Positions 6,516 to 13,020 of a stretch of DNA of 35,930 nucleotides are shown piece by piece. The position numbers were made by a program, and so were the translations under genes. The notes beneath the pieces were generated by a model that worked only from the letters and a program-made list of their open reading frames with translations, made no database searches and was not told the DNA's origin. Positions within the stretch are counted from its first letter, which is position 1; each line of letters opens with the position of its first letter. Source of the stretch: a virus (taxonomy: Duplodnaviria > Heunggongvirae > Uroviricota > Caudoviricetes); the IMG/VR virus record IMGVR_UViG_2711768046_000005, one strand, 5' to 3'.

Positions 6516-7034
6516 TCACAGGCCGATATTGCGGCGGTGTTGCTCCAGCCGGTCGACGCCGTTCACCTTCTCAATCATGTTGATGGTGTCGATTTCGACC
6601 AGCTCCTTACCGTCCATCGTCAGCCGGAAATAGGTGCAGACCACGGAGATTTTCGACTCGGTGTCTTCTCCCTGTTTGCCCTCGCCGGTGTCGATTTCTT
6701 TCTGACGTCCACGCATGACCACCTCGACGGCCACCGTTTCGCCGGTATCGTCGCGCTGGTAAGAGCCTGCAAAACGAATCGGTACGGCATCCACACCGGT
6801 TGCGGCGTAAAGCTCCCAGATAACCGAATCCGGGAAGCCACCGAGCGACCACTCCATTGACAGCGCATCGTCATCAAGGCCGAGGTCTACCGGTGCGCTG
6901 CCGTTCATCCCCGCACCGCGATAGTTTTCGAGCTTACGGGTCAGTTTTGGTAGCGTGACGGACTTCGCGACGCCCTGATAGCTGTAGCCGTTCAGAAAGA
7001 CGTTCATTAACTTGAGTTTGCGCGGCATTGCCAT
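6516..7034 (-). CDS. FII: Tail tube protein FII (172 aa)
   Basis: P2 FII length and synteny. Confidence 0.9.
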   Translation of the reverse strand: MAMPRKLKLMNVFLNGYSYQGVAKSVTLPKLTRKLENYRGAGMNGSAPVDLGLDDDALSMEWSLGGFPDSVIWELYAATGVDAVPIRFAGSYQRDDTGETVAVEVVMRGRQKEIDTGEGKQGEDTESKISVVCTYFRLTMDGKELVEIDTINMIEKVNGVDRLEQHRRNIGL

Positions 7035-7046
7035 CGGTCAGGCTCC

Positions 7047-8237
7047 TTAATTGCTGTTAACCGAGGTGACCAGATTTGCCAGGTATTTATCGGTAATACG
7101 CTGGCGCAGGGTCAGGTTTTCAAGAGGAGGCACCGGTGTATAGTCGTAGTCGATATACAGTTTTCCGGCCTTGAGGGTTTCCGCATCGTTGGATTCTTCG
7201 CTGAACCAGCAGGTCGCATCCACGATATAGCCGTTTGTTTTCAGCTCACGGAATTTGGCATTGATGCCGTCAACGATGTCGCGAATCAGCGTTGCGGTGA
7301 TGGGCTTGTCCACCGCCCACATGTGCGCCTCAGCCATCGTGTCGGCCATCACCTGCGCGGTGCGGGTGTAGTTTTCAAAGAGGAACAGCGGGTCATCAGA
7401 GCAGGTACGGTTACCCCAGAAGCGGAAACCGTCGCGGCGAATCAGCGTTGTGACGCCTGCCTCGTTCAGCAGGTCAGCATCGGTGCCGGACTCCTGCAAA
7501 TCCCAGAATACAGATGCGCTGATGCCGGTAACACCGTTTACCCCGACGTTGGACAGCGTTTTATGCCAGCCCTGCTCCTGGTCGATTTTAGCACGCAGCC
7601 CCAGCGCACGGGCGGTGGCATACGCGGTGGCGGTAGTGCTGCTGACCGTATCCCATGCGAGGAAATCCGGCCAGATGACCATCAGCTCACGCTGGCTGAA
7701 ATTCTGGCGGTAGGCTTTCACCTCGGAAATGGTTTTACAGCCCCATGCGCTGATATACCCGAAAGCGCGCAGCTTCTGACAGACTGATGCCAGTGCAACA
7801 GCCACCTCTTTGGTGTCCAGTCCCGGCACGCCGAGAATACGCGGTTTAACACCGGTTACCGACTCTGCCGCCAGCAGGGCTTTCAGTCCGGTATACTGAC
7901 CGTTTTCGTCAGTGGTGCCGATGATATTGGAAACGGTCTGCGCGAGTTTCGTTTCTTCGTCGTCGCCGGTGCCGTCTTCAACACGCACGACAACGGTGAC
8001 CGGTTTTGACTGGTCAGCGATGGCCTGCAACGATGCCGCCAGCGTGCCTTTTTTACCGGCCTTTGCAATTGCGCTCTGCACATTGGTAATCAGCACCGGT
8101 TTATTGAGGGGGAAGGTTTCCGCATCCGCATCGCTGGCCGTGCAGACCATGCCGACAATGGCAGTGGATACAGTGGAAATGACGCGGGTGCCGTCGTTAA
8201 TCTCCAGCACCTGCACGCCGTGATGATAGTCACTCAT
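7047..8237 (-). CDS. FI: Tail sheath protein FI (396 aa)
   Basis: P2 FI length and synteny. Confidence 0.9.
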   Translation of the reverse strand: MSDYHHGVQVLEINDGTRVISTVSTAIVGMVCTASDADAETFPLNKPVLITNVQSAIAKAGKKGTLAASLQAIADQSKPVTVVVRVEDGTGDDEETKLAQTVSNIIGTTDENGQYTGLKALLAAESVTGVKPRILGVPGLDTKEVAVALASVCQKLRAFGYISAWGCKTISEVKAYRQNFSQRELMVIWPDFLAWDTVSSTTATAYATARALGLRAKIDQEQGWHKTLSNVGVNGVTGISASVFWDLQESGTDADLLNEAGVTTLIRRDGFRFWGNRTCSDDPLFLFENYTRTAQVMADTMAEAHMWAVDKPITATLIRDIVDGINAKFRELKTNGYIVDATCWFSEESNDAETLKAGKLYIDYDYTPVPPLENLTLRQRITDKYLANLVTSVNSN

Positions 8238-8309
8238 CCGTTTAACTCCGTGGTTAATGGGTGCAACTATTTTCTGTTGGGCAGTGCATGAGACGCTATT
8301 TGACCTGAC

Positions 8310-8327
8310 TGGTCAGTGGATGAAACA
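8310..8327 (-). promoter_or_regulatory. Putative Ogr-responsive dyad of late promoter P_F (TGT-N12-CCA on - strand)
   Basis: This is an imperfect version of the P2 late-promoter dyad TGT-N12-ACA. Its centre at 8318.5 is about 56 bp upstream of a plausible start downstream of a GAAAAT -10-like hexamer (8274-8269). Confidence 0.35.
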
Positions 8328-8334
8328 ACAGATT

Positions 8335-8361
8335 AAAGAAAAGGCGGGCAATTCGCCCGCC
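8335..8361 (-). terminator. Rho-independent terminator (end of upstream late H-G transcription unit / cargo boundary)
   Basis: The stem is ggcgggc (8343-8349) / gcccgcc (8355-8361), followed on the - strand by ttttcttt. Confidence 0.7.
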
Positions 8362-8421
8362 TGTCCTGATTTGAACTCACTCATTTTCCGACTGACAATT
8401 TACATAGCCCAAAAGTTATCA

Positions 8422-8457
8422 AATCTGACAGTCTGCTTTGAGTGAGAAGCAGACATT
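8422..8457. repeat. 36-bp inverted-repeat element, copy A (left border of FRG cargo island)
   Basis: The sequence is aatctgacagtctgctttgagtgagaagcagacatt. Its reverse complement matches 10229-10264 at 11/11 plus 15/16 outer positions, with a divergent 9-nt centre. It can itself fold (gtctgctt/aagcagac). Confidence 0.8.
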
Positions 8458-8751
8458 TACTTAACCGGATAGCAAGAGACTTCATACTACAGCTCATACA
8501 TCATGGTTGATCCCGGAGTTTTCAGCAATGGAAATTGCCCACATGATCGTACCGTAACCACATTAGAAGCAGGTTCACTTTGTGAATTTTGATTGTGTCA
8601 CCCTATCAGTTTTGAATTTTTATAAAAAATATTCGCAAATTTGTGAATTATGAGAGACATACGAGCATGGACAACCAATGTTACTTTCATACACAATGAA
8701 GCAACATGATAAAAATACACTGACTTTAGTAAGTAAATTTAGGAGATTGCG

Positions 8752-10086
8752 ATGTTTAGCTTAATCATGGCCGGAGAACCGGACGTTTTTGACCGCTGGC
8801 CGTGTATGGACCCTGAGCTTAAAGAAGGCAAGGAAAGCTTCTCGATGTCCCGCATGCTGGAAGGCACCCCAAGCAATATTTACAGAAAATTAACACCAAT
8901 AAGACCCGATACCTTAAGAGTACTCGCCAAGCTACCGGTGTTGTTCATGACCGAAATTTATACAAAAGATGATGAATATGATACAAACAAGTACATCAGG
9001 ATCAGGCTTGGGGAAATAAGAAATTTACGTAAAGATGGTGGCGATATTTTATTTTCTTTCAAGATTAATCATGATTTTGGAGAAATAACGAATCCCCAAA
9101 CGACATTATATAAAGAAACCCTAGGACTAGGATCTTTCGGGTTAAGTCGTACACATTGGGCAGTAAAAAATAAGGATTTGAATATTGTTCTGGAATTACT
9201 TGGTTTAAACAAAAAAAATAGCCATCTGAAAGGTACAATCAAATTAAAAAAACAAACATACCCAGTAGTCGAGAATATTATAGATTATCTTAATTTCATT
9301 AAGAAAAACTTTCGTGATGGTCTCATTACCTTCTATCGTGGACACTCTAAAAGCTCATATGAGCTTGTCCCCTCTCTTTACAGAAAAAATCAAAACGGGA
9401 CGTACAGGCATCTTGCTTCAGAATCTGATTTAGTACGTGAAATACTCAGCGCAAGACCAAATGAATTTAAGGAGGATAAATTTACGATTGATAAACTTGT
9501 CCGCATGCAGCATTATGGCTTGCCTACAAGACTCTTAGACATTACATCTAACCCACTGATAGCATTATATTTTGCTTGCTGTTCGAACCCCGATGAAAAC
9601 GGACAGGTGATTGCGTTTTCAACAAACAGAAAGAAAATTAAATATTTCGACTCAGACACAGTGAGCTGTATAGCAAACTTATCACTTTTATCTTACGAAG
9701 AGTTGGAAAAATTGTCTTCCATTGATGCCAGAAAAGGTAGTATGGAGTTACCTGAACTCACTGATAAACTTGCAGACCTTATACAGAATGAAAAATCATA
9801 TTTCAGAAACAGAATAATCCCTGATGACTTAAAGAAAGTTGTTTTCCTTAAGGCAAAAATAAATAATGAACGCATACAATCTCAGGCAGGAGCTTTTCTT
9901 CTGTTCGGACTTGATCCCATTTTACCGGAAACAGATGCTGAGTTTCCTCTTAACAGAGTGGAGATAGCGAACAAAAATAAAATTCTGGAAGAGCTGGCAC
10001 AGCTTAATATATCCGAAAGCACTGTATATCCCAGCATGGAGAAAACGGCAGCAGAAATTACAAAAAAGTTTTTATCGGTATCATAA
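8752..10086 (+). CDS. FRG-domain protein with an uncharacterised N-terminal domain (444 aa), cargo at the P2 Z/fun position
   Basis: SD AGGAG (8741-8745) lies 6 nt before the ATG. Motifs FYRGH...LVPSLYR (aa 194-211), MQHYGLPTRLLDITSNPLIALYFAC (aa 252-276) and NNERIQSQAGAFLLFG (aa 371-386) fit my recollection of the FRG family (PF08867). The gene is AT-rich and on the strand opposite the flanking late genes. Confidence 0.65.
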   Translation: MFSLIMAGEPDVFDRWPCMDPELKEGKESFSMSRMLEGTPSNIYRKLTPIRPDTLRVLAKLPVLFMTEIYTKDDEYDTNKYIRIRLGEIRNLRKDGGDILFSFKINHDFGEITNPQTTLYKETLGLGSFGLSRTHWAVKNKDLNIVLELLGLNKKNSHLKGTIKLKKQTYPVVENIIDYLNFIKKNFRDGLITFYRGHSKSSYELVPSLYRKNQNGTYRHLASESDLVREILSARPNEFKEDKFTIDKLVRMQHYGLPTRLLDITSNPLIALYFACCSNPDENGQVIAFSTNRKKIKYFDSDTVSCIANLSLLSYEELEKLSSIDARKGSMELPELTDKLADLIQNEKSYFRNRIIPDDLKKVVFLKAKINNERIQSQAGAFLLFGLDPILPETDAEFPLNRVEIANKNKILEELAQLNISESTVYPSMEKTAAEITKKFLSVS

Positions 10087-10228
10087 AGGGATAAACTAAA
10101 GGAAACGAAAACTAAGACTGCGCAGTCTTCAGGTGGAAGTACTCATCGGGAACGGTTTCAGGGGCAAAAACTGGAAGCTCCAATGGCCTTGAGCTGCTCC
10201 CTATAAATTAACATATCTCAATGTTATC

Positions 10229-10264
10229 AATGTCTGCTTTTGGCACAGAGCGGACTGTCAGATT
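10229..10264. repeat. 36-bp inverted-repeat element, copy B (right border of FRG cargo island)
   Basis: The sequence aatgtctgcttttggcacagagcggactgtcagatt is the inverted partner of 8422-8457. Confidence 0.8.
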
Positions 10265-10316
10265 AGGCTTTACTCTGTGCCATAGATATGTAAGCTCACA
10301 CCAGAGCTCATGCAAC

Positions 10317-10844
10317 TTATTGCGGCATTTCCGGCCATTCAGGATTTGCAGGATCCACACGGCTGACCAGAACGCTGTAGCGTTCCCATGACTCCAGTCG
10401 TGCGCGCTCCTCATCCGTCGCCATATTCAGCCTGACGGCGCGTTCCAGCGGCTGGATAACTGATTCAGCTTCGGAAAGTAACGCGGCCTTTTGTGATTCG
10501 GCCTGTTGTTGCTGTTCGTCTGCCGTATAAATCCGCTTAATCACGGCACCATCCTTAAACATCCATTTACCTGAGTCATCAGCACGTCGGTTGGAGGTAA
10601 TATCAGGAACCTCGACAACGCTGAAACCTTCAGGGTTAAGCGTTGAAGCATCTCTGGTGATGCCGACAATTATATTATTCTCGTCGTAAACAATCTTTAT
10701 CGTGTCTTCCTGAAAATTACTTACTTCCTCATACCAGTTTTTTCCGTCCTCAGAGTAAAGCCAGATAACTCCGTGTTTCTTTGTTAACTCATACTGTTCC
10801 AGTGTTTTAGCGTTACCCGCTTTTATGTTCTTTAAGTGCATCAT
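10317..10844 (-). CDS. G: Tail fibre assembly chaperone G (175 aa)
   Basis: P2 gpG length. The conserved C-terminus ...[38 protein letters not shown] is recognised. Confidence 0.9.
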
Positions 10845-10845
10845 A

Positions 10846-13020
10846 TTAAACGCTCGCTACATTATACCAGGTGCCATTTATATACTTTTGGACGGCTCTG
10901 TAATAAACACCCGCTATATTATCGGCAGAGTTGGAACCTGTATCCTGAACATTAATACCAGACAATACATGACCTGATGGGCACTGGAAATTCCATGTTT
11001 GCCAGTTGTTCACTCCATAATATTGCTGTGAACCAAGTCGAACATCTTTCACATATCTGGAATCAAAATTGCCATAGTTGCCGGGAATAACTTGCGAACC
11101 ACAAAGCCAGTTACCGTTATTATCCATGTATGCCTGACCATCGGTGCCATTGGCTGTCCTTGAGTTATTAATCATGTAGATGCCAAATTGCTTATTTCCC
11201 AGACCGCCAATCATAAATTTGCGGTCGGCATGGTCCTGACGGAGCAAAGCCTGAGCACCATCAGTGGATACCGCATTACGTCCAAAAATAACATTCTGGT
11301 CACGCATATGAATCCACATGCCTGTGCTGCTGTTAATTGCAAGGCGGTTTGCGTACACCCATGCGTTAGTTGTTATATCTCCTGTAACATCCAGAGCGTG
11401 CCCCATAGTTATGCGACCAGTTCTGAGATTCAACGAAAAGGGGCGTAGTGGCCCGATATCACCATTTTCCCCCTCATTCTCTCGTGTGGGGATAATATGC
11501 AGGCATTCTTCAGAACGGCGAAAAATAGCACCAAAGGATGAATTAAAGATTCTCAGTGCATTGACTGTCGATATTTTTACTTCACTGCTGAAAAGGGCTT
11601 TAACAAGGACAGACAAAGCATCCCATTTAAGATTCATCAGGTCTTTTGTTGTGGTGCCCTGACGGCTTCTCCATTTGAAATATTCATTGCCGTTGTCGCC
11701 TGTTTCAAACCACATGTATGAATCAGTGTCACCATCGGCATCATTTTTAAATCCAATCTTCGCCCAGTCAGTATTTCGAATCCAGGCAAGGATTGAGTCG
11801 TTTTCAAAAGTAAGTCCACCGGACAAGGTATCGCCATTTTTTTGCACGGCGTTCCCGGCTCGGTTTACCGTTTCCTGTAAACCGAGATATTCGATAACGG
11901 CGGCAACGGTCGATTTAGCCAGAATATCCCGCCCGACTTTTGTCAGGGTCGCCAGGCTGGCAACATCATTCCCCGTAAAATACGGAAACCTGTCTGCCGC
12001 AGTAGCAAGCCCCGCCAGCGCCGTCAAAGTGGCATCTTTCGGTTGCTTACCCGCAAGCGCATTAGTCATGGTGGTAGCAAAATTCGGGTCATTGCCCAGC
12101 GCCGCCGCCAGCTCGTTCAGCGTATTCAGTGCGTCAGGCGACGAGTCTACAAGGGCGGCAATCGCGGCCATAACGAAAGCCGTGTTTGCGATCTGAGTAT
12201 TATTCGTTCCCTGTCGCGCAGTTGGCGTCGTTGGCGTTCCGGTCAGTGCAGGGCTGTTTAATGGCGCTTTCTTGTTCGTTTCATCCATTACCGTCTTAAC
12301 GGCTTTTGGTGTTGCGGCGAGCGTTTCAGACATGCTGTTGGTCGCACTACTTAGCTGGACAAGACCTTTTCGCGCTGTGGTAGCGTCCTGTGCGGTATAT
12401 TTCCCGTTAGCAAGGTCATATGCGGCCTTAACCGCTTTCGGCGTTGCGGCCAGTGTTTCAGACGTGCTGTTGGTCGCATTGCTTAACTGAGTAAAACCTT
12501 TTGCGGTCAGCGAGGCGTCCGGGTGACGTCGTGACTGTTCATGCTCTGCAATTTTGCCATCAACGTAATCCTGCGTCGCCATCACCGTTGTGGTGTCAAT
12601 GGTCAGCTCCACTGAGGCCACACTGCTGACGATGATGACCATGCGGCAGGTCTGCGAACGCCCTGAGCCTTCGGCAAGGGTAGGTTTATAACTTTCGGCC
12701 ATGTTCGCCACGGCAATTAACGTTCCCGCATCATCGTACAGGCCAAGCTCTCGCATCCAGAAACCGCCCACCTCCGGCGGAATAACCAGCTCTGCGATAA
12801 TATAATTACTGTTTCGTTTGTCCTGGCTGATTTTGTTCAGCGCATGTCGCCAGACTTCGTGGATAAGCCCGGTCTGTCCGGCATCCGGGACAGGCAATTT
12901 ACCACCGCCATCCCCGACGGCCATCGTGGTAATGTTGACCTTCCGCCCTCCCGGTGCGGTTGCCGCTGCCAGCTTTGCTGCACCGGCAGTGGTGATAACG
13001 GTTTTGAATTTTGTGCTCAT
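10846..13020 (-). CDS. H: Tail fibre protein H (724 aa)
   Basis: The N-terminus [25 protein letters not shown]... is P2 gpH-like. It has internal tail-fibre repeats, and the C-terminal part is AT-richer. Confidence 0.9.
12295..12502 (-). repeat. Two 76-bp imperfect direct repeats (12295-12370 and 12427-12502), period 132 bp, inside H
   Basis: They encode the duplicated motif L(S/V)..[16 protein letters not shown] (phage tail-fibre repeat). The two DNA copies align without gaps. Confidence 0.85.

Follow-up and report, generated by a model that had tools for sequence, protein, structure and literature searches.

The window analysed here is the whole 35,930-nucleotide sequence of the IMG/VR virus record IMGVR_UViG_2711768046_000005 (Caudoviricetes). 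Its segment 8422..10264 lies within a P2-like (Peduovirus) Escherichia coli prophage, the late genes of which are encoded on the minus strand. The segment is located in the gap between the tail-fibre assembly gene G and the tail sheath gene FI, which is the classical Z/fun position of phage P2 and a recognised hotspot for horizontally acquired genes. It consists of an AT-rich cargo island, with a single gene for a protein containing an FRG domain, and of a pair of inverted 36-nucleotide repeats (36-mers) that enclose the island. The structure, relatives and probable origin of these repeats are described here. The features of the locus are:

7047-8237, minus strand: tail sheath gene FI, a late gene flanking the island
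8422-8457, plus strand: left 36-mer, composed of the second subterminal repeat AATCTGACAGTC (8422-8433) and a hairpin with stem 8431-8438 / 8447-8454 and loop 8439-8446
8458-10228, plus strand: exchangeable cargo module with a single gene, 37% GC
8752-10086, plus strand: FRG-domain gene encoding 444 amino acids (Pfam PF08867, E = 2.8e-22)
10229-10264, minus strand: right 36-mer, with cargo-side arm 10232-10239 and backbone-side arm 10248-10255 forming a chimeric stem with a C.A mismatch; AATCTGACAGTC is on the minus strand at 10264-10253
10317-10844, minus strand: tail-fibre assembly gene G, a late gene flanking the island
10846-13020, minus strand: tail fibre gene H, a late gene

The two 36-mers constitute the top inverted repeat of the region (repeat search: 36 nucleotides, 83% complementary, 1771 nucleotides apart). 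The left copy is identical to the reverse complement of the right copy at 30 of 36 positions, with a single outer mismatch at position 13 and differences at five of the nine central positions; direct comparison thus bears out the preliminary description of the locus, which counted 26 matches in 27 outer positions. By our own calculation, the number of inverted pairs with at least 30/36 identities expected by chance within 2.9 kb is about 1e-6, and the pair has been seen again in about 90 related loci. Each copy is partly palindromic, and the two are identical at 13 of 36 positions even in direct orientation. The DNA between the 36-mers has a GC content of 37.4%, compared to 55% and 47% in the flanks, and contains one real open reading frame, as expected from the initial report that the pair encloses an AT-rich island. 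The same report stated that each copy can fold into a hairpin. Only the left copy forms a good hairpin, with a perfect 8-bp stem (z = -2.9); in the right one the stem contains the C.A mismatch and is less favoured than another stem (z = -0.2 and -1.3).

The outer arm of the hairpin alone (AATCTGACAGTCYGCT) was used to seed a scan of IMG/VR. It identified more than 120 loci, about two dozen of which have a complete hairpin but lack flanking G or FI genes. The search for the 36-mer around other genes, proposed at the outset, thereby found it in unrelated contexts: the hotspot between gpA and the portal gene (old/tin position) of other P2-like phages, a tRNA-Ser integrase island with PD-T7-1-like and Aga-nuclease-like genes, the end of a different myovirus prophage, an orphan toxin/immunity array of a contact-dependent growth inhibition (CDI) locus, a tRNA-Leu island, and lambdoid prophages. 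Megablast comparisons between such loci reveal only about 85 conserved nucleotides around each motif. In the better-preserved copies, referred to here as canonical, both ends are about 86 nucleotides long and start with TGTATTAGCTCAGA. They contain two (A/G)ATCTGACAG (AATCTGACAG-type) subterminal repeats about 32 nucleotides apart, the second of which opens the 36-mer, followed by the hairpin. All eight canonical pairs are flanked by 7-bp direct duplications, six of them perfect and two with 6/7 matches, representing six different target sequences. A census with a profile of the ends yielded 228 ends at 133 loci and 78 complete pairs of 240–5,570 bp, with eight perfect duplications and three at 6/7. 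The target consensus is NNTNANN: all 11 of 11 duplications have T in the third and A in the fifth position. An empty site corresponds to the canonical cassette of the CDI locus (L139): in E. coli M9 the homologous gene is uninterrupted at the insertion point and contains a single copy of the target. A search for the empty site of another canonical cassette, the 862-bp L138, gave no contiguous match.

The other P2 hotspot harbours a canonical cassette at position 6983-8402 of locus L092, between gpA and the portal gene of a P2-like phage (also at L056 and L113), and the duplication of L092 is perfect (AATAATT). The old/tin-position hotspot of the window itself (about 25.7–29.5 kb) contains no copies of the ends according to the profile search. 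A Qin-like lambdoid prophage has, immediately upstream of its lysis genes, a cassette of about 600 bp with a small gene for a TolA C-terminal domain (L142 7001-7609), and this insertion site is seemingly common among E. coli genomes (matches H68-H84). The end finds a match in about 30% of complete E. coli genomes, and not one of the 40 listed matches bears an annotation as repeat or mobile element.

The cassettes share their termini with an autonomous element. The outermost 29 nucleotides of the cassette end agree at 28–29 of 29 positions (28 for the canonical L-type end) with the terminus of a 1,201-bp insertion sequence (IS). The 346-residue transposase of this IS (WP_024236841) matches the IS481 equivalog model of NCBIfam above its cutoff (292.6 bits, cutoff 224). 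Both IS ends start with TGTATTAG, followed about 50 nucleotides inward by the palindromic ATCTGTCAGAT, and the IS makes 7-bp duplications (CCTGAGC and CCTTAAT), the same length as those of the canonical cassettes. The R-type end of the cassettes shares TGTATTAG and CTGACAC with the other IS end. DNA related to the 1,201-bp IS is present in 3,520 of 5,426 complete E. coli genomes, mostly in partial form and with 90–95% identity, and a near-full copy in only 134 of them.

The profile of the family ends (nhmmer) matches the whole window exactly twice, at 8372-8457 (E = 2.6e-20) and 10229-10314 (E = 1.5e-23). The repeat is not a 36-bp unit, as had been assumed, because the profile aligns 86 nucleotides on each side. 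By this alignment, the 36-mers are the subterminal, best-conserved inner third of each end, and the true ends are 50 nucleotides further out. The features of the ends in the window are:

8365-8371, no strand assigned: left relic target-site duplication CCTGATT (putative), identical at 5/7 positions to 10315-10321; fits NNTNANN
8372-8457, plus strand: left terminal inverted repeat of about 86 bp, an L-type end equivalent to the IS end beside the C-terminus of the transposase; the outermost bases are decayed, TGA not TGT
8390-8400, plus strand: first subterminal CTGACA repeat GACTGACAATT, the counterpart, by alignment, of GATCTGACAGTT in canonical ends and the IS
10229-10314, minus strand: right terminal inverted repeat of about 86 bp, an R-type end with outermost bases TGCATGAGCTC
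10315-10321, no strand assigned: right relic target-site duplication ACTTATT (putative), overlapping the G stop codon at 10317-10319; fits NNTNANN

The 50 nucleotides outside each 36-mer resemble phage backbone, yet they are homologous to canonical transposon ends. The outer 50 nucleotides of the left end in the window are identical to the canonical end at 27/50 positions (z = 3.4), and those of the right end to the canonical R-type end at 35/50 (z = 8.5). For the P2 consensus the values are 30/50 on the left and 36/50 on the right (z = 5.9 and 9.3), and none of 2000 shuffles reaches the score. Ends of the P2 type start with TGTAC and TGTATG. The CCTGATT / ACTTATT pair is common to essentially all P2-like Z/fun loci. 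The loop of the left hairpin (8439-8446) is complementary to 8376-8383 further out (CTCACTCA with TGAGTGAG, 8/8). At the right end, the loop segment 10242-10250 is complementary to 10273-10281 (GGCACAGAG with CTCTGTGCC, 9/9); this pairing is the preferred fold and is kept in P2-like and canonical R-type ends.

Judged from these sequence comparisons, the 36-mers are probably the inner thirds of the approximately 86-bp ends of a transposase-less, passenger-carrying relative of the IS481 family, a 'mobile insertion cassette'. Mobile insertion cassettes and MITEs (miniature inverted-repeat transposable elements) derive from insertion sequences but lack the transposase, an example being MIC231 of Bacillus cereus, which stems from IS231. 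As in these elements, the ends of the P2-type cassettes are homologous to those of an autonomous IS, the duplications of the canonical cassettes are as long as those of the IS, a passenger gene takes the place of the transposase, and movement would depend on a transposase supplied in trans; cargo-less forms of 240 bp also occur in the family. By contrast, the P2-type ends are long (86 bp) and include a subterminal hairpin that is specific to the cassettes, and many cargos are found between near-identical ends at one site, so that most of the diversity would come from exchange in place rather than from transposition. The resemblance to the IS481 family lies in the 1,201-bp relative with its DDE transposase, TGT-initiated inverted repeats, and short duplications; unlike this relative, the element in the window encodes no transposase and its terminal bases are decayed. 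The absence of a transposase or recombinase between the repeats had been noted before and holds: the only gene inside is that of the FRG-domain protein, and a tblastn search across the window gave no credible match to the IS481 transposase. The early suggestion of a small cassette-like element without its own recombinase was right in spirit; however, its ends lie 50 nucleotides further out, it is related to IS481 and associated with 7-bp duplications, and it appears to be a fixed relic of which the cargo alone is exchanged.

The position of the element in P2-like phages does not depend on its content. The phages examined were P2, Wphi, pro147, R18C, 12474III, P24C9, P22H1, and one P2 relative. 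In nine P2-like phages with eight different cargos, the two copies are located about 184 nucleotides from the FI start codon and 53 nucleotides from the G stop codon; the left copy has been lost in pro147. Similarity among these phages ends at the inner, cargo-side foot of each hairpin, and the P2-like element is placed between the G stop codon and a terminator upstream of the PF promoter. Some 60 distinct junction sequences were collected from IMG/VR, representing about 46–49 different cargos. Among these junctions, positions 1–24 of the motif are nearly invariant, positions 25–36 are variable, and nothing is conserved beyond position 36. The repeat similarity thus recurs in related prophages, and the question raised initially, whether the repeats stay with the backbone or travel with the cargo, has a divided answer: positions 1–24 stay with the backbone and positions 25–36 travel with the cargo. 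Identical backbone positions regardless of cargo had been put forward as the mark of a pure backbone terminator. The positions are indeed identical, yet the same ends are transposon ends elsewhere, and the test is confounded.

A protein-seeded scan of genome contigs with gene G returned eight distant loci only. In three different phage lineages, a cassette is located 0–45 nucleotides past the stop codon of a tail-fibre assembly gene (window 10314-10319, L116 8328-8353, and L138 8956-9001); either a preferred target or merely tolerance of insertion at this site could be the reason. The 240-bp cargo-less forms at L031 2332-2571 and L058 3684-3923 have R-type and L-type ends back to back with about 70 nucleotides between them. 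They are situated inside a P2-like Z/fun hotspot with further cargo after them, in a nested or rearranged arrangement.

The FRG protein encoded in the window matches the PADLOC candidate defence family PDC-S15 (E = 6.7e-99). Its residues 1–170 (window 8752-9260) match no Pfam or NCBIfam model, and the PDC-S15 matches begin at about residue 166. Not all cargo can be regarded as defence genes: two of the nine commonest cargo clusters match PADLOC. The PD-T7-1-like and Aga-nuclease-like cargo of L098 matches PADLOC. The FRG module is also present, with 94–96.5% identity, in a lambdoid prophage beside hokD and in a chromosomal island near paoCD. The recent similarity of the modules starts within the hairpins, at window position 8431 or 8435 on the left, and on the right it reaches as far as 10255. 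The ends around the lambdoid copy are its own, diverged members of this family. In the paoCD-side island (L148 2474-4311 and 4336-6433), the FRG module retains only the hairpin parts of the ends and is directly followed by a pair of genes for an AAA ATPase and an HNH endonuclease; the arrangement may be a tandem array of modules.

Replacement of cargo at a single site is exemplified by L026 and L128, in which the flanks and ends are 98% identical to about position 75–82 of the terminal inverted repeat, whereas the cargos and their cargo-side arms are unrelated. In the window, both inner arms are AAGCAGACATT. Paired with the FI-side arm GTCTGCTT, this sequence gives a perfect stem; with GTCCGCT, the outer arm common to all P2-like G-side copies, the stem has a C.A mismatch. 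The cargo-side arm reassorts freely with the outer arm, since its base is independent of the outer base across 136 ends. We infer that the resident site contributes the outer arm and AATCTGACAG, and the cargo the inner arm. A resident outer arm combined with an imported inner arm explains why the left hairpin in the window is perfect and the right one mismatched.

These observations are consistent with a single ancient insertion: one cassette would have entered a P2-like ancestor at the G stop codon and become established at that site as the Z/fun hotspot. The outermost bases would have decayed later, to TGA and TGC in the window, and the element probably no longer transposes. In particular, the copy in the window is probably immobile, because TGA and TGC replace the terminal TGT. 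Since then, cargo would have been replaced in place as the conserved parts of the ends recombined with those of related cassettes located elsewhere in the cell, which acted as donors; recombination in a short conserved stretch of the ends appears to be the simplest mechanism of the swap. The AATCTGACAG part is most likely a subterminal transposase-binding site, and the palindrome may limit transcription over the boundary, though it is not a standard terminator.

Several points weigh against this interpretation. The case for the P2 copy is one of homology, and the swap by recombination is deduced from the breakpoints. The duplication in the window matches at only 5/7 positions, for which the estimated probability of chance occurrence is about 1% and somewhat higher in AT-rich DNA, and the terminal TGT has been lost from both ends. 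No empty G–FI site was found in any P2-like phage. The hairpin is absent from the autonomous IS, and no transposase was found linked to any cassette. Descent could have proceeded in either direction, from the IS to the cassettes or from the cassettes to the IS. The very abrupt change from conserved to variable sequence at motif position 24/25 would be compatible with a dedicated site-specific mechanism, too.

Such a mechanism, in which the hairpins are crossover sites of a recombinase that moves cargo modules, like integron attC or Xer-dependent pdif sites, is unlikely, although it is compatible with the origin of the ends from a transposon. The switch from invariant to variable sequence coincides with the junction of the loop and the inner arm in about 60 junctions and in the comparison of L026 with L128, the mismatched chimeric stems are what a crossover in the loop would give, and each cargo module has on both sides an arm of its own that is compatible with the hairpin, with inverted sites around the modules as is reported for pdif modules. 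However, no recombinase is associated with the cassettes, the cargo-side arm is absent altogether from some ends (L056 and L092), and insertion into new sites is accounted for by transposition. Moreover, the breakpoints of the FRG module vary with context, lying at 8431 or 8435 on the left and at 10255 or beyond it on the right, which fits a homology-guided crossover better than a fixed cleavage site. Integron cassettes are defined by an adjacent tyrosine integrase IntI with attI, and by directly oriented attC sites at the 3' end of each cassette with a GTTRRRY core. No integrase is encoded in or beside the element, its sites are inverted, not direct, and at its inner ends GACATT or GACGTT precedes variable sequence, with no GTTRRRY core. 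To our knowledge, the motif does not resemble the sites of IHF, dif/cer sites, or the hix/gix sites of invertases. That the palindromes arose by chance or convergence, with no common origin, is practically ruled out. Their partial palindromy inflates the similarity of the inverted repeats, but the asymmetric flanks, AATCTGACA on the outer side and ATT on the inner side, fix their orientation, the homology and the profile matches extend over 86 nucleotides, and the pair recurs in more than 130 loci.

The preliminary description favoured paired terminators that insulate the cargo from late transcription. That the repeats are conserved phage hairpins blocking transcription into or out of the cargo, and similar through shared function only, is improbable. 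Both copies occupy fixed backbone positions whatever the cargo, a stem-loop is possible for each, and a consensus scan marks the left copy on the plus strand as terminator-like. However, intrinsic (Rho-independent) terminators are characterised by a G+C-rich stem-loop immediately followed by a U-tract. The pair does not qualify because neither copy has a U-tract, and the right stem is mismatched in addition. The sequence following the stem is ATTTACTT for the left copy on the plus strand, which is marginal, and ATTGATAA or TGTCAGAT otherwise. Among 134 distinct ends, at least five T in the eight nucleotides past the stem are found in 4% for transcription entering the cassette and in 0% for transcription leaving it. 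A separate strong canonical terminator is present on the minus strand at 8342-8362 (GGCGGGC...GCCCGCC then TTTTCTTT), just outside the left end and directly upstream of the PF activator site as positioned by the annotation of P2; this is where transcription between the island and FI really stops. The annotated V-operon terminator of P2 lies inside the cargo, about 280 nucleotides from the repeat. The stem arms do not exhibit compensatory covariation, which also speaks against a structured RNA, and Rfam covariance models gave nothing near the gathering score on either strand of 8150-10450 (best E = 0.65–4.7, irrelevant families). Finally, ends of about 86 nucleotides with 7-bp duplications and an empty site occur in loci that do not contain late operons.

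The repeats at the P2 locus have been recorded before. GenBank entries AJ512677, AJ512680, and AJ512683 (2002–2004) contain the 'proviral Z-region' of P2-EC31, -EC46, and -EC58, with 'left' 113-nucleotide and 'right' 91-nucleotide inverted repeats annotated by Nilsson, Karlsson, and Haggard-Ljungquist (Mol Biol Evol 2004, 21:1-13). The annotated repeats of AJ512683 and AJ512680 coincide with the profile matches (E = 1e-22 to 1e-24) and are homologous to 8372-8457 and 10229-10314 of the window, which thus has the long inverted repeats around the G–FI insert known from P2-like coliphages. The 91-nucleotide 'right inverted repeat' is the L-type end with the adjacent TCCTG(ATT), and the 113-nucleotide 'left inverted repeat' contains the R-type end and shares its hairpin foot as boundary. 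The locus and the sequences are the same, and the annotated features state no mechanism. Nilsson, Karlsson, and Haggard-Ljungquist reportedly treated the enclosed Z-region genes as horizontally acquired lysogenic-conversion genes; the title of their study is said to point to site-specific recombination and to suggest that related repeats in other enterobacteria had already been noticed. No mention of the IS481 relative, the TGTATTAGCTCAGA termini, or the 7-bp duplications was found in the literature searched, to which the text of Nilsson et al. did not belong. Likewise, no description of the repeats, of IS481-derived cassettes, or of their link to hotspots was found there, and a full-text search with the motif sequence returned unrelated primers only. 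The stem-loop sequences called PeSLs of T4-type phages, reportedly described as 'mobile regulatory cassettes' by Arbiol et al. in 2010, are said to contain an early promoter and to flank variable genes in hyperplastic regions. They are similar to the P2-type ends in that short conserved stem-loops surround variable genes and are thought to guide recombinational shuffling; however, PeSLs are not transposon ends, whereas the element in the window has terminal repeats, duplications, and an IS relative. A consensus scan found no promoter in the ends of the window. The window adds a member with FRG cargo to repeats already on record, and the link to IS481, the 7-bp duplications, and the wide spread of the ends may be new.

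The locus studied here is the second P2 hotspot, with variable and partly defence-related cargo, which has been noted as containing fun (Vassallo et al. 2022, PMC9519451). Hotspots have been defined by their flanking genes, with the mechanism of exchange left open (Rousset et al. 2022, PMC9122126; Vassallo et al. 2022, PMC9519451), and recombination of cos ends has been considered as a speculative route of exchange (Rousset et al. 2022, PMC9122126). Inverted repeats and terminators are not mentioned in PMC9122126 and PMC9519451, nor are repeats in the hotspot papers of 2022–2024. It is conceivable, but doubtful, that one family of IS481-related transposase-less cassettes with hairpin-bearing ends of about 86 bp underlies many E. 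coli hotspots, with the hairpin as a dedicated site for swapping cargo. If so, its range would include the Z/fun site of P2, old/tin-position insertions, lambdoid sites close to hokD and to lysis genes, tRNA islands, and orphan arrays of CDI loci. The family would then resemble integrons as a means of shuffling cassettes, with transposon ends as its basis, and each module would bring its own stem arm.

P2-like prophages rank with the principal carriers of anti-phage genes in E. coli, and the means by which their hotspots gain and exchange cargo are still a matter of speculation (Rousset et al. 2022, PMC9122126). Constancy of position under changing cargo cannot distinguish backbone elements from the fossilised ends of a mobile element. 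The interpretation of Z/fun as a fixed transposon relic would provide a concrete origin for a hotspot, and the profile of the 86-nucleotide ends together with the 7-bp duplications would serve as a signature for finding further cargo sites. It would also offer a testable mechanism, in which a transposase supplied in trans mediates insertion and recombination within the ends mediates exchange.

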